This document shows, piece by piece, positions 1,636-12,498 of a stretch of 15,467 nt of DNA. The translations under genes and the position numbers were made by a program. The DNA is taken from the NCBI GenBank assembly GCA_013331805.1, contig DUFS01000073.1, forward strand, positions 3,315 through 18,781. The letters are read 5' to 3'. The notes beneath the pieces were generated by a model. It worked only from the letters and a program-made list of their open reading frames with translations. It searched no databases and was not told the DNA's origin. This DNA is from Candidatus Micrarchaeota archaeon (GTDB taxonomy: Archaea; Micrarchaeota; Micrarchaeia; Anstonellales; Anstonellaceae). Position 1 is the first letter of the stretch; the number at the start of each line of letters is the position of its first letter.

Positions 1636-2097
1636 TCATTGCGTCCCAAAGTAAGACTTGAATTTCGGTGTTGTCGTGAGCGTCGAGCTTCTCCCTGACT
1701 TTTTCTGGATGACAAAGCCCTTTTCCACAAGCTCGGCAACGTCCTGGTAAATCGTGGAGCCCAGCTTGTCCGCCAAGAGTGACTTTTTTATCCCGTCGCT
1801 TTTCGAAATATAGGCAAGGGTGCGAAGCGCATGCCTTGAAATCTCCCCGGCCTGCGCGAAGTCCTTGACAGCATTCACGTACTCGGGGCGAAGCCGCATG
1901 TAGTACTTGCCCTCCTCAAAGGCAATTTCAATCGCGCTGCCGCTGCCTGAATACCTCTTTTGAAGCGAATCGAGCCTCTGGGAAATGAAGCCTGGCGCAG
2001 AGACACCTATGAGCTTTCCAAGCTCGGCAACCGCCAGGGGCTTGCTCGACATGAAAAGCGCAGCCTCGATTATCCTCTCGGCCTCGGTTTCGTCCAT
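1636..2097 (-). CDS. scpB: SMC-Scp complex subunit ScpB
   Basis: IIEAALFMSSKPL N-terminus, ALRTLAYI, LVEKGFV and C-terminal TTPKFKSYFG, matching ScpB tandem wHTH motifs. AGGAGG RBS; directly downstream of scpA. Confidence 0.93.
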   Translation of the reverse strand: MDETEAERIIEAALFMSSKPLAVAELGKLIGVSAPGFISQRLDSLQKRYSGSGSAIEIAFEEGKYYMRLRPEYVNAVKDFAQAGEISRHALRTLAYISKSDGIKKSLLADKLGSTIYQDVAELVEKGFVIQKKSGRSSTLTTTPKFKSYFGTQ

Positions 2098-2143
2098 GAA
2101 AATTTCCTCCTGAAATTTTCAGACATTTTCCTTCAGGAAAATG
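2096..2143. repeat. Double inverted repeat (double-hairpin module) over the scpB start and RBS
   Basis: TGAAAATTTC(2097-2106)-ctcct-GAAATTTTCA(2112-2121), GA spacer, then CATTTTCC(2124-2131)-ttca-GGAAAATG(2136-2143). Both stems are perfect. Confidence 0.85.
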
Positions 2144-2191
2144 CTGATAAGAATCACTCATCTTAAGCGCAATTTGTACTTGCCAGCCCCT

Positions 2192-10122: not shown

Positions 10123-11568
10123 GTGGCCAGCATGATCAGCCCGGACTTCGAAATCAGGCTCAGGCGCGAGGCAAAGACCTCTCTCCAGGTTTTCAAGGAC
10201 CAGTCCATACTCCGCAGGAAATTCGGGGATGACGGAGTCAGGCTCTATGACAGGATATTGGGGGACAAGACCGCGCACGAGCTTTTGGAAGAGCTTGGCA
10301 TGAACGAGGAAAAATTCGTTTCAATACTCGAGTTCATGAACAACAACGGCATGGTCTCGGTCGTGGAGGACGCCGAGCTTGAGTCCGCAAAATCCGCTGC
10401 AGGCAAGCAAGGCGAGGAAAAGGAGGAGTGGGCGCAAGAAAGCGAGCCGGCACTCGGCAAGGAGCCTGAAGAAAAAGAGGAAGGGCTAAGCGAAAAAGAA
10501 GAGGTTGAGGGCAAAGGCGGAAAAGAAGAAGGGGAAGGATCAAGCGAAGAAGAGGAGGGCAAAACAGAAGAAGACAAGGAAAAGCCTGGGCCCGAAAAAT
10601 CCCTGCCTGACGACCAGGGGCGCGATGAAGCGCTGCGCGGCATGCGGGGAAGAAAGCCCCGCCCCCCAAACAGGGCCGAAGTTCCTGAGGAGGAAGGCGA
10701 GCCTCTGCTTTCGCCTTTGGAAAAGGTGCTATTCGAAAAGTACGGGGACGTGGGCGTCCGGATTTACAATCTTATTGACGGGGAGAAAACAGCCGAGGAA
10801 ATACTGCGGCAGACAGGTGTCACCGAAGCCAGGCTTGTGGAAATACTCGAGTTCATGGACGAGCAGGGGATCATCAAGCTTGAAAAGCCGCCCGAGAAAG
10901 AGCCAGGGGAAAAACCCGAGGAAGAGGAGCGCTCAGCCGAGCCCGAGCAGGAGCCGCGCTTCAAGCCCATGATCGAGGAGGAGCCGGAAGAGATGCCCTT
11001 CACCCCTCCCAAGGCGCTTGAAAAGGAAAAGCCAAAGCCGAGAAAAGACGAGATAATGGAGGAGGAAGAGGAGCTGGAGCGCGAAATCGTGATGGTGGAC
11101 GTTCCTGAGCTTGCCAAGCTTTCGCTAATGCAAAAGGCGCTTCTCTTTGCCGAGCTTTCCACCAAGTTCGGAAAAAGCGCCAAGGACCTGATTGAGATGG
11201 TCGACAGCAAGCGGGACTTCATTGACCTTTCGCTTGGCACAGGGCTTTCATTTTTCGACGTTGACGCGATAATGGCGTATTTCGGGAAAAAGGGGCTGAT
11301 GAGCTTCAGGCAGCTGGGCCGCGAGGACATTAAGAAAAAGTACGGCGAGGACGGCTTCGCAATATACAAGCGCTTTGGCAGGGACGGACTCCTGCTTTAC
11401 GAAATGATCGGCAAGGAAGCCAGCCTCAAGGACATAATCGTCAAAAGCAAGCTGGAAGTTGACCGGGCGATAGAAATACTCATTTTCATCCACAGGGTCC
11501 TGGGGCTGGACGTCCCGATCGACAAGGGGCTGATTTATCGCCAGCTGGGAATGCGCAAACCGTATTAG
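10123..11568 (+). CDS. Hypothetical protein with four ~48-aa winged-helix-like repeats and acidic linkers
   Basis: Repeats of K[FY]G..G..[LI]Y..I.G.KT..E[LI]....G......[VI].IL.F....G begin at nt 10219, 10738, 11164 and 11371, separated by E/K/P-rich low-complexity linkers. Start is GTG 10123 or ATG 10132. Confidence 0.88.
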   Translation: MASMISPDFEIRLRREAKTSLQVFKDQSILRRKFGDDGVRLYDRILGDKTAHELLEELGMNEEKFVSILEFMNNNGMVSVVEDAELESAKSAAGKQGEEKEEWAQESEPALGKEPEEKEEGLSEKEEVEGKGGKEEGEGSSEEEEGKTEEDKEKPGPEKSLPDDQGRDEALRGMRGRKPRPPNRAEVPEEEGEPLLSPLEKVLFEKYGDVGVRIYNLIDGEKTAEEILRQTGVTEARLVEILEFMDEQGIIKLEKPPEKEPGEKPEEEERSAEPEQEPRFKPMIEEEPEEMPFTPPKALEKEKPKPRKDEIMEEEEELEREIVMVDVPELAKLSLMQKALLFAELSTKFGKSAKDLIEMVDSKRDFIDLSLGTGLSFFDVDAIMAYFGKKGLMSFRQLGREDIKKKYGEDGFAIYKRFGRDGLLLYEMIGKEASLKDIIVKSKLEVDRAIEILIFIHRVLGLDVPIDKGLIYRQLGMRKPY

Positions 11569-11595
11569 GTTTGCGCAGACATGCCCGCAGGCATG
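11551..11595. repeat. Double inverted repeat (double-hairpin module) enclosing the stop codon of the 10123 gene
   Basis: TGCGCAAACC(11552-11561)-gtatta-GGTTTGCGCA(11568-11577), GA spacer, then CATGCC(11580-11585)-cgca-GGCATG(11590-11595). Confidence 0.88.
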
Positions 11596-11609
11596 AAGAT
11601 GAGAAAGCC

Positions 11610-12038
11610 CTACCGATTCAGTATCCTGCTCAGTGCCATCCTCTCAATCGCAAGCCCGCCTTCGCTGTATTTTCCAATTTTCTTGCCCCATTCGGGCAAA
11701 GCCAATCGCCTGCATTTCTTTAGGAGCAGCTTCTTCTTCAGTTTCGAAATCGGAATTCCCTTTTTTGACACCAGCACGAAGTCCTTCACGCTTTTTGCCC
11801 CGATTTTCCGCGCTGCCGAGGAAAAGTTCGTTTCATTTGCAAGGAACAGCAATGCCTCGTTTGCCATCTTGCCAGAAATGTTTTTTTTCGCCGAGAATTC
11901 GGATTCGGCAAGCAAGAACGCGGCTTCCAGCTCCTTTTTGGTACGCATTGCTGCGGGATCGAGCAGCAGCATTCCTTGCGCAGCCTTCACAAGCTCGTGC
12001 ATGCTTGCGGCGGACGAGGAGCAGCGCAGGATCAGCAT
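11610..12038 (-). CDS. cgi121: KEOPS complex subunit Cgi121 (divergent)
   Basis: A...F..KKNISGKMANEALLFLA.....SSAARKIGAK and C-terminal IERMAL match the Cgi121 pattern. ATG 12038 lies about 23 nt from TTTAAA, so it is probably leaderless. Confidence 0.75.
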   Translation of the reverse strand: MLILRCSSSAASMHELVKAAQGMLLLDPAAMRTKKELEAAFLLAESEFSAKKNISGKMANEALLFLANETNFSSAARKIGAKSVKDFVLVSKKGIPISKLKKKLLLKKCRRLALPEWGKKIGKYSEGGLAIERMALSRILNR

Positions 12039-12060
12039 GCGTAGGTGCTCCGGTATAACC

Positions 12061-12068
12061 TTTAAAAA
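12061..12068. promoter_or_regulatory. Putative TATA box shared by divergent cgi121 and rps8e
   Basis: TTTAAAAA in the 79-bp divergent gap. Confidence 0.55.
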
Positions 12069-12117
12069 CAAGTGCCAGGATAAGCATTCCGCATTCGCGA
12101 TTCGAGGAGGTTATGGA

Positions 12118-12498
12118 ATGGAAAATTATCACGGCGCATCAGGATCCACCATCAAGGGCAGCGGAGGCAAGCGTGGCAGGCACTCGGACAAGAAGCTCCG
12201 ATACATCGGCGGGATTTTCACCGCAACTAAAGTGGCAAAAGAGGATGTCCGGATCATGAAAAGCAAGCGTGGGAACGCCTTGAAGATAAAGCTCAAGGCC
12301 GCAAGGTTCGCAAACGTGCTCACCAAGGACGGCATGAAGCGCGTGGCAATAAGAAACGTGCTTGAAACCCCTGACAACCGCCACCACGCCCGCCAGAACA
12401 TCATCACAAAAGGCGCTATCATCGACACCGAGGCAGGCAAGGTCAAAGTCACCAACCGCGTAGGCCAGGACGGGGTTGTGAACGGAAGGCTTCTGTAA
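12118..12498 (+). CDS. rps8e: 30S ribosomal protein S8e (eS8), 126 aa
   Basis: RGNALKIKLK, NVLETPDNRHHARQNIITKGAIIDTEAGKVKVTNRVGQDGVVNG. GAGGAGGT RBS at 12104-12111 fixes the start at 12118 inside the longer ORF-track frame. Confidence 0.97.
   Translation: MENYHGASGSTIKGSGGKRGRHSDKKLRYIGGIFTATKVAKEDVRIMKSKRGNALKIKLKAARFANVLTKDGMKRVAIRNVLETPDNRHHARQNIITKGAIIDTEAGKVKVTNRVGQDGVVNGRLL

Follow-up and report, generated by a model that had tools for sequence, protein, structure and literature searches.

A double-hairpin repeat carrying a Shine-Dalgarno sequence adjoins the scpB start codon of a groundwater micrarchaeon and is probably a small insertion element

The scpA-scpB spacer and its double hairpin

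We analyzed a 15,467-nt stretch of DNA (the window; contig C78:3315-18781) from the 1.19-Mb, 83-contig assembly of a groundwater archaeon of the Micrarchaeota (GCA_013331805.1, labeled G000 below). On the minus strand, scpA is followed by a 94-nt spacer and then by scpB, and within this spacer lies the double-hairpin element that is the subject of this study (Table 1). The start codon of scpB reads CAT at 2095-2097 on the plus strand, and its ATG touches the first hairpin, hairpin A. Other genes of the window, encoding S8e, a KaiC-type ATPase, and TrmB, are of archaeal type.

The double hairpin described at scpB in the initial annotation is real. In plus-strand terms, hairpin A pairs T2097-C2106 (TGAAAATTTC) with G2112-A2121 (GAAATTTTCA) around the loop CTCCT (2107-2111). 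A GA linker (2122-2123) separates it from hairpin B, in which C2124-C2131 (CATTTTCC) pairs with G2136-G2143 (GGAAAATG) around TTCA, and both hairpins (2097-2143) are perfectly paired. The fold predicted for a 91-nt sense RNA consists of exactly these two hairpins (−27.0 kcal/mol, z = −3.07), with 2 of 200 shuffles reaching an equal value. The source genome contains 35 adjacent pairs of perfect hairpins, compared with 3, 0, 2, 1, and 4 in five first-order genome shuffles, and 255 perfect hairpins with a stem of at least 8 bp, compared with ~127 in shuffles. The heptamer CAGACAT is not enriched (148 occurrences against ~145 expected); thus, the signal lies in structure and context rather than in the word itself. 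No Rfam 15 covariance model matched either strand of positions 1950-2300 at E ≤ 1.

Table 1. Features of the locus and of related elements. Positions refer to the window unless a contig (C) or locus (L) label precedes them; SD, Shine-Dalgarno sequence; ORF, open reading frame; R1, covariance model of the start-site copies.
Feature	Position	Strand	Evidence or remarks
scpB coding sequence, 153 aa	1636..2097	-	PF04079, E 4.2e-26; N-terminal MDETE common to G001
scpA coding sequence, longest ORF 323 aa	2192..3163	-	PF02616, E 2.9e-14; Pfam domain from residue 105, true start uncertain
Hairpin A, 10-bp stem, 5-nt loop; A of the scpB ATG is the final base of the stem	2097..2121	-	−7.7 kcal/mol alone; compensatory changes in 5/10 pairs (30 copies)
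Hairpin B, 8-bp stem, CAT..ATG foot, 4-nt loop	2124..2143	-	−7.0 kcal/mol; compensatory changes in 7/7 pairs (30 copies)
Predicted SD AGGAGG, 8 nt from ATG, within the hairpin A loop	2106..2111	-	complementary to 16S 3' end GATCACCTCC
Inserted element, 51 nt, ATCAG to TTTTC on the sense strand	2098..2148	-	filled versus empty orthologous sites (scpB, rpS10); R1 91 bits, E 1e-26
Displaced native initiation region: probable old SD GAGTGA(T) and its spacer TTCTT, moved to 56 nt from ATG	2149..2159	-	matches the G001 empty site
Related 48-nt double-hairpin element of another subfamily, on the end of a 481-aa gene	11551..11598	+	outside R1 matches at E ≤ 1
Second-subfamily arrays (G000)	C8:2801-2884, C46:8643-8759, C59:12108-12162, C60:28542-28598
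Second-subfamily arrays (G000), further	C68:1835-1929, C81:3859-3905, C11:18748-18781, C50:1456-1506
Copies of a 2.6-kb element (G003)	L093:1825-4419, L096:1235-3830, L097:2053-4622

A family of repeats at start codons

When the scpB-scpA region was used as a DNA query, only the module (query 832-895) matched elsewhere in the source genome and the genus. Six close copies in the source genome align over ~70 nt with a mean column identity of 75%, and each adjoins the ATG of another gene: scpB, CDC48, Oxidored_q6 (NuoB-like), rpS10, an L40e-like gene, and an RNase PH exosome subunit. Read along the sense strand, the copies share the arrangement (T)ATC[AG]G, hairpin B with its CAT..ATG foot, TCTGAAAAT.., the SD, ..TTTTC, and ATGG, with an element length of 47-60 nt.

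We built the covariance model R1 on these six copies and accepted matches at E ≤ 1e-5. The source genome yielded 11 matches, of which nine adjoin an ATG (one, on C83, with a single base between). The remaining two lie on C40, where a further SD and ATG follow 30 nt on, and on a gene end (C34:11020). Across the genus, 16 of 23 genomes contain matches, with 0 to 15 per genome. The seven genomes with no match are G009 (100% complete), G016 (99%), G004 (97%), G018 (93%), G002 (87%), G012 (87%), and G011 (83%). In a sample of the order, 19 of 121 genomes had a match; 17 of these belong to the same family and 15 to the same genus. The covariance search proposed in the initial annotation thus recovered further copies, and its view of the module as a repeated unit holds. 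Together, the matches establish, at the level of sequence, that a family of repeats exists.

We fetched 27 loci from the genus and analyzed 24 of them for genes, leaving out L045, L046, and L047. At all 24, the ATG at the R1 position heads an ORF of at least 39 aa. Pfam matches were obtained for 18 of the 24 ORFs: S10 (three), L31e, S14, S27a, S12, L19e, a KOW protein, prefoldin, UPF0147, PcrB, argininosuccinate lyase, deoxyhypusine synthase, Toprim (DnaG-like), DHH, a class I tRNA synthetase, and a hydrolase. All 30 copies that we aligned adjoin an ATG, and 28 of them an ATGG, compared with 281 of 704 ATG genes genome-wide.

Filled and empty sites define a base-exact insertion

Comparison of the scpA-scpB spacer among relatives, which the initial annotation had proposed, covered the source genome and 10 of 11 congener spacers (rows L001 and L008 were mis-parsed). 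Spacer lengths range from 10 to 958 nt, and the module is present in the source genome only, being absent from all 10 congener spacers that could be used. In G001, the closest relative (85% ScpB identity), the site is empty, and GTGATCCTT is followed directly by ATGGACGAAACC; in the source genome, GTGATTCTT is followed by the 51-nt insert and then by ATGGACGAAACC.

The leader of rpS10 offers a second set of sites, with 4 of 20 orthologous loci filled (G000, G014, G022, and G003). In filled G022, the flank ends in GGTGAAACA, followed by the insert and ATGGGCAAGGCA; in empty G017 and G020, GGTGAAACA runs directly into ATGGGCAAGGCA. Likewise, filled G000 and empty G019 and G021 have TTGGTGAATTG in common before the junction. 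In both comparisons (G022 with G017/G020; G000 with G019/G021), the flanks agree except for one upstream base. Based on the filled and empty sites at both genes, we take the insert to run from ATCAG to TTTTC. An AT stands at both junctions, so 2096-2146 fits equally well; this AT is either a 2-bp duplication or merely the start of the ATG. The start-site subfamily has no long target duplication, unlike the gene-end relatives described below, and no fixed tetranucleotide stands 5' of the insert.

The sequence now left upstream of the insert matches the G001 empty site (Table 1) and also fits the GTGA/GGTG plus 5-nt layout of other scpB orthologs. An SD-like word stands at canonical spacing from the left junction in 19 of the 30 aligned copies, compared with 8.4% of random positions. 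The initial annotation had suspected an old ribosome-binding site (RBS) beyond the module, and the G001 site, the rpS10 flanks, and these retained words all support it. Its proposed excision between two ATGs (giving GAGTGA, ttcttatcagc, and ATG) was off by five bases, as ATCAG belongs to the insert. By comparison of orthologous sites, a base-exact insertion with displacement of the apparent native SD is thereby established at scpB.

In a tree of EF-1alpha and S10, the four filled rpS10 tips are scattered rather than sisters: G014 falls among empty G002, G018, G009, G016, and G004; G000 stands beside empty G001; and G003 and G022 lie in a subclade with empty G011b, G008, G017, and G020. At least two separate gains at rpS10, or several base-exact losses, are therefore needed. 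At scpB, the insert is present in all site-spanning contigs (2050-2200) of four metagenome runs, bearing in mind that metagenome contigs drop rare variants. The one joint observed, from 2025 to 2246 (X9, side 24), showed low likeness and was not used. Of the 20 runs listed as containing the stretch, none is an RNA run.

Compensatory change in both hairpins

We aligned the 30 copies to R1, a procedure that leans the alignment towards the model structure, and found standard pairs in 96.4% of cells, compared with 74.0% in shuffles and 38-57% when partners were slid. Changes on both sides occur in 12 of 17 pairs, comprising all seven of hairpin B and five of the ten of hairpin A. Cells with both-side changes number 99, against 24.1 expected from shuffles, and none of 500 shuffles reached 99. 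These counts demonstrate that compensatory change has kept both hairpins. Some copies (L034, L032, L044, and L043) have an AGTGGA..TCCACT hairpin in place of hairpin B, which makes the family a mosaic. An extension of hairpin B by TCAG/CTGA was considered and rejected, as two copies with TAA for TGA compensate within hairpin A instead (TTA for TCA). Readings of the CTGA and TGATG words as C/D-box small RNA, K-turn, or bulge-helix-bulge motifs were likewise dropped, the would-be guides being self-complementary.

The carried Shine-Dalgarno sequence

The first loop had been identified as the scpB SD (AGGAG on the minus strand), and this holds: AGGAG(G) stands 8 nt before the ATG, complementary to the end of the 16S gene. 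For context, we derived genome-wide SD spacings from a crude gene caller, several of whose starts were mis-set and which served for rough context and SD statistics only. By these calls, the genome is ~87% coding, and the spacing peaks at 5 nt for GGTG and at 7-9 nt for GGAGG, which amounts to the same register on the anti-SD. Among the 30 aligned copies, an SD core precedes the ATG by 6-9 nt in 29, and GGAGG occurs at 7-9 nt in 18, of which ten share the 8-nt spacing of scpB. The predicted SD thus shows canonical geometry throughout the alignment, in agreement with the earlier proposal that the module occupies a translation-initiation region.

An insertion element that probably supplies the scpB start

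We conclude, with a probability of roughly 0.78, that the scpA-scpB spacer holds a genus-specific, gene-less insertion element of ~50 nt whose own SD serves scpB, and that such elements reach start sites selectively. The element was inserted between GAGTGA TTCTT and the scpB ATG and would have brought AGGAGG in the loop of the start-proximal hairpin. Because the element SD lies in the native register to the 16S 3' end, scpB is probably now translated from it, and the old SD 56 nt upstream would be a relic. The hairpins may serve as structures read by a mobilizing enzyme, as RNA structures that buffer the leader while presenting the SD, or in both ways. Start sites would be reached by site selection favoring N/ATGG behind an SD, and not by random insertion and selection alone.

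Several observations weigh against this conclusion. R1 itself contains ATGG, so its matches are biased to start sites, and the three loci left out of the gene analysis depart from the pattern: L045 and L046 have a TGCA-type second hairpin and neither SD nor ATG, and L047 lacks the TCTGA junction, SD, and ATG. The surplus of ribosomal and highly expressed genes would also fit retention by selection. At rpS10, G003 and G022 have a flank base in common, and their fills may represent one event or one transferred allele; more generally, transfer of filled alleles between species could account for part of the patchy distribution, in place of repeated insertion. Both the use of the new SD and hairpin formation in RNA are deduced from sequence, and wobble pairs do not clearly favor the sense strand (14 G-U versus 8 A-C). 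Finally, candidate mobilizing enzymes fit poorly. Y1 transposase (PF01797) occurs in 6 of 23 genus genomes and serine recombinase in 1 of 23, neither tracking copy number, and no physical link between tyrosine recombinases and the hairpins was seen at G003 element ends or G000 integrase genes.

A more far-reaching proposal, which we offer tentatively, is that these are start-site-homing cassettes that recognize an SD, a spacer, and N/ATGG, insert or excise base-exactly, and replace the RBS with a hairpin-presented one. Such homing would follow a mechanism of a new kind, possibly guided by structure or pairing. The elements might then act as plug-in leaders for highly expressed genes of tiny DPANN genomes, with sister subfamilies acting at gene ends and re-supplying the last codons and the stop.

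If the insertion reading is correct, RBSs in reduced archaeal genomes would be swappable by a mobile 50-nt cassette and not solely inherited, and a single insertion could rewire how core genes, among them scpB, rpS10, and CDC48, are translated. Base-exact placement before ATGG in separated lineages would point to targeting unexplained by the transposases identified in these genomes. The element also provides naturally matched filled and empty sites for studying a hairpin-presented SD in archaea, where SD use is poorly characterized. For annotation, it would explain long structured operon spacers in these genomes, and it cautions that a gene's closest SD may be of recent origin.

Alternative explanations

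The alternative that survives best, although we consider it on the unlikely side, overlaps with the insertion reading: the double hairpin would be mainly a cis-regulatory RNA leader, an operator for a translational regulator, or a stability or processing signal common to highly expressed genes, retained because a trans-acting factor or RNase recognizes the hairpins in the mRNA, with its spread secondary. In its favor, copies at one and the same gene show compensatory changes from species to species (rpS10 of G000 versus G014, and of G003 versus G022). The conserved parts agree with it as well, with TCT in 30/30 aligned copies, GA next in 25/30, and G after the ATG in 28/30, while the ATCAG end is intact in 19/30. 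Ribosomal proteins (S10, L40e, L31e, S14, S27a, S12, and L19e) figure prominently among the products of the genes behind the element, which also include prefoldin, exosome, DnaG, and CDC48. However, scpB, argininosuccinate lyase, GGGP synthase, and the NuoB-like protein place the element in more than one pathway, and seven genus genomes without a copy, three of them 97-100% complete, keep the same genes. The absence of an Rfam match in 1950-2300 and the lack of any candidate binding protein among our findings also count against a leader, and the balance of G-U and A-C pairs given above shows no clear strand preference.

Random insertion followed by survival of only those copies exactly before start codons, where the carried SD keeps the gene working, is unlikely. 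Most random insertions would indeed be lost, since the genome is ~87% coding, and relatives in other subfamilies do sit on gene ends (11551; C18:2827; C34:11020; C57:1082) and in genes (C55:5033; C55:8447). Under such a process, neutral intergenic copies should persist, yet all 30 copies adjoin an ATG (ATGG in 28), and lineages with empty relatives between them have the rpS10 start filled at an identical base.

We also weighed a derivative resembling repetitive extragenic palindromic (REP) sequences or palindrome-associated transposable elements (PATE), moved as single-stranded DNA by an IS200/IS605-type Y1 (HUH) transposase that reads the hairpins as ends, and regard it as quite improbable. 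Two hairpins near the ends, no terminal inverted repeats (TIRs), and no clear target duplication are in keeping with such an origin, as are Y1_Tnp genes or fragments in the genus, including three fragments in G000. Hairpin A starts at the junction, which would leave no space for a guide segment of the IS608 kind, and no fixed tetranucleotide precedes the insert. A 2026 survey reports IS200/IS605 in >65% of Micrarchaeota genomes (PMC13343696). Within the genus, however, Y1 was absent from element-bearing G015 (15 matches), G010 (8), G022 (7), G014, and G007, the first three being copy-rich, and only fragments occur in G000. A cognate Y1 gene (RAYT/TnpA) was therefore not found to accompany the repeats, a result weakened by the incompleteness of some genomes.

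Finally, perfect palindromes near a gene start could suggest double-stranded DNA operators for a dimeric transcription factor controlling scpB, a very remote prospect given stems that vary in sequence while staying paired (all seven pairs of hairpin B covary), unlike the sites of a sequence-reading factor, and an insert absent from the scpB orthologs examined (10/11 parsed).

Related subfamilies at gene ends, within genes, and in arrays

The initial annotation had assigned the scpB module the same signature as a module at 11551 in the window. The two do share the order of hairpin A, GA, and CAT..ATG hairpin and a CAGACAT junction (2120-2126 at scpB, 11576-11582 at 11551); in addition, both have an AT at each junction, terminate on the right in ..GAT, and are of comparable length. 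R1, built on start-site copies, does not match the 11551 module at E ≤ 1, and we place it in another subfamily; the likeness is one of architecture, junction, and flanking AT. Among 11 orthologs whose alignment covers the end of the 481-aa gene, none has the 11551 module there. Most of these orthologs terminate in G-[MLI]-[KR]-K-stop, and G014 and G021 have other hairpin elements there. The one in G014 (locus L084, after the stop of the gene) is independent of the 11551 module but occupies the same gene end, where the end codons are likewise repeated.

Repetition of flanking codons marks these relatives more generally. In five of six relatives located on gene ends or in genes, the element is followed by 12-18 nt that imperfectly repeat its own first 12-18 nt and encode the same residues, a feature not seen in the start-site subfamily. 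Among gene-end elements of G000 (C18:2827-2874, C34:11020-11066, and C57:1082-1130), the last codons and stop are re-supplied (MEK-stop/MEK-stop; EKLV-stop/EKPV-stop); at C57:1082-1130, only the stop is altered, apparently from TAG to TGA. In-frame elements of the A-plus-AGTGGA type lie in ORFs at C55:5033-5079 (51 nt; a RIO/Bud32-like kinase) and C55:8447-8499 (57 nt; the end of a CoA_binding_2 protein), and the residues after each insert repeat its first residues (MKKSLG/MKKALG; MKKAHE/IKKEHE).

A second subfamily in G000 consists of longer multi-hairpin arrays with conserved linkers and without SD or adjoining ATG (Table 1). Their order is TTCAG, a CAT..ATG hairpin, TCTGA, a TGCATTTT..AAAATGCA hairpin, CATCCACTGC, and a GGACAAA..TTTGTCC or TGAAAAA hairpin.

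Recombinases and other features of the locus

Tyrosine recombinase genes occur in 12 of 16 element-bearing genomes and 0 of 7 element-free ones. This tracking is weak, and because the genomes are kin, the recombinases may only mark mobilome-rich lineages. PF00589 matches number 17 in G003 and 11 in G017. In G003, we also observed a ~2.6-kb element with a 400-aa tyrosine recombinase in many copies of 87-92% identity (Table 1). No A, B, or C hairpins were found at the ends of this integrase element, and none beside two integrase genes of G000.

Within the scpA-scpB spacer, other congeners carry additional DNA of different kinds. G001, G003, and G015 (loci L003, L011, and L009) have 270, 450, or 958 nt of additional DNA with hydrophobic-looking reading frames, suggesting small ORFs; the operon junction therefore appears to be a repeated site of gain. 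In G022 (locus L010), a different double-hairpin element (TGAAAAAGTTGC hairpin plus AGTGGAATT hairpin) lies directly 3' of the scpA stop. The longest scpA ORF has ~100 surplus N-terminal residues, rich in K and E, ahead of the Pfam domain; because relatives align only from about residue 36-80, its start may lie further downstream.

Elsewhere in the window, a 305-aa ORF (11581-12498, plus strand) has its S8e domain confined to residues 192-305, and the ribosomal protein therefore probably starts far downstream. The upstream part of this ORF overlaps a minus-strand 153-aa ORF (11610-12071) whose end is conserved in relatives.

Comparison with known systems

REP sequences, bacterial interspersed mosaic elements (BIMEs), and REPINs are short, multi-copy extragenic palindromes, often paired and mobilized by RAYTs, whose hairpins can affect mRNA stability and translation. 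They are not known to provide the following gene with its SD or to be confined to start codons, and they have a GTAG-type foot. The scpB-type element resembles them in being short, present in many copies, and composed of paired hairpins; it differs in its feet (CAT..ATG and TGA..TCA, with no GTAG), and no RAYT/Y1 gene tracks its copies.

MITEs (miniature inverted-repeat transposable elements), such as the Correia elements of Neisseria, are gene-less, non-autonomous, lineage-specific, variably present among relatives, and co-transcribed with their neighbors. The scpB-type copies are likewise gene-less, range in number from 0 to 15 matches across individual genomes of the genus, and leave filled and empty orthologous sites (4/20 at rpS10). 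An element of ~50 nt presumably lies at or below the size floor of TIR-based MITE finders, and it lacks the TIRs they require. For comparison, we drew on two MITE surveys (PMC11602168; PMC13343696). Unlike MITEs, the element has ends (ATCAG.../...TTTTC) that are not complementary and inverted repeats that are internal only; the repeat at its junctions is at most 2 bp (AT).

Rickettsia palindromic elements are 100-150 bp, bacterial, and located in coding genes. Relatives of the scpB element occur in frame within genes in the same way, for example the 51-nt insert in the RIO-like kinase at C55:5033, while the scpB copy itself lies outside the coding region.

Literature on MITEs of Micrarchaeota and DPANN, and on MITEs or REPs in an RBS and start-codon context, yielded no like element. 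A promoter within the element was considered and dropped: by eye, A/T-rich boxes stand upstream of some copies, at varying distances and outside the element. Its A/T-rich arm is probably too near the ATG for an archaeal TATA box, and the inserts at scpB and rpS10 are operon-internal.

The closest published analogue appears to be REP2 of Neisseria, together with the inverted-repeat (IR) sequences of Borrelia. Neisseria REP2 (CREN) and the Borrelia plasmid IR sequences are described as dispersed, intergenic, TIR-less repeats of unknown origin and mode of spreading; they contain two internal stem-loops and sit just upstream of ORFs, to which they bring an RBS, and REP2 is 120-150 bp long and bacterial and carries a promoter and ATG (PMC3184786, Delihas 2011). 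Like REP2, the scpB-type element has two internal stem-loops, adjoins an ATG in 30/30 copies, and has an SD core in 29/30. Compared by description, it differs in being ~50 nt long and archaeal, with no promoter detected within it; the base-exact comparison of filled and empty sites also places it downstream of an older SD and directly before the native ATG. As the two come from different domains of life, we regard REP2 as an analogue of the scpB element and not as a fellow member of its family.

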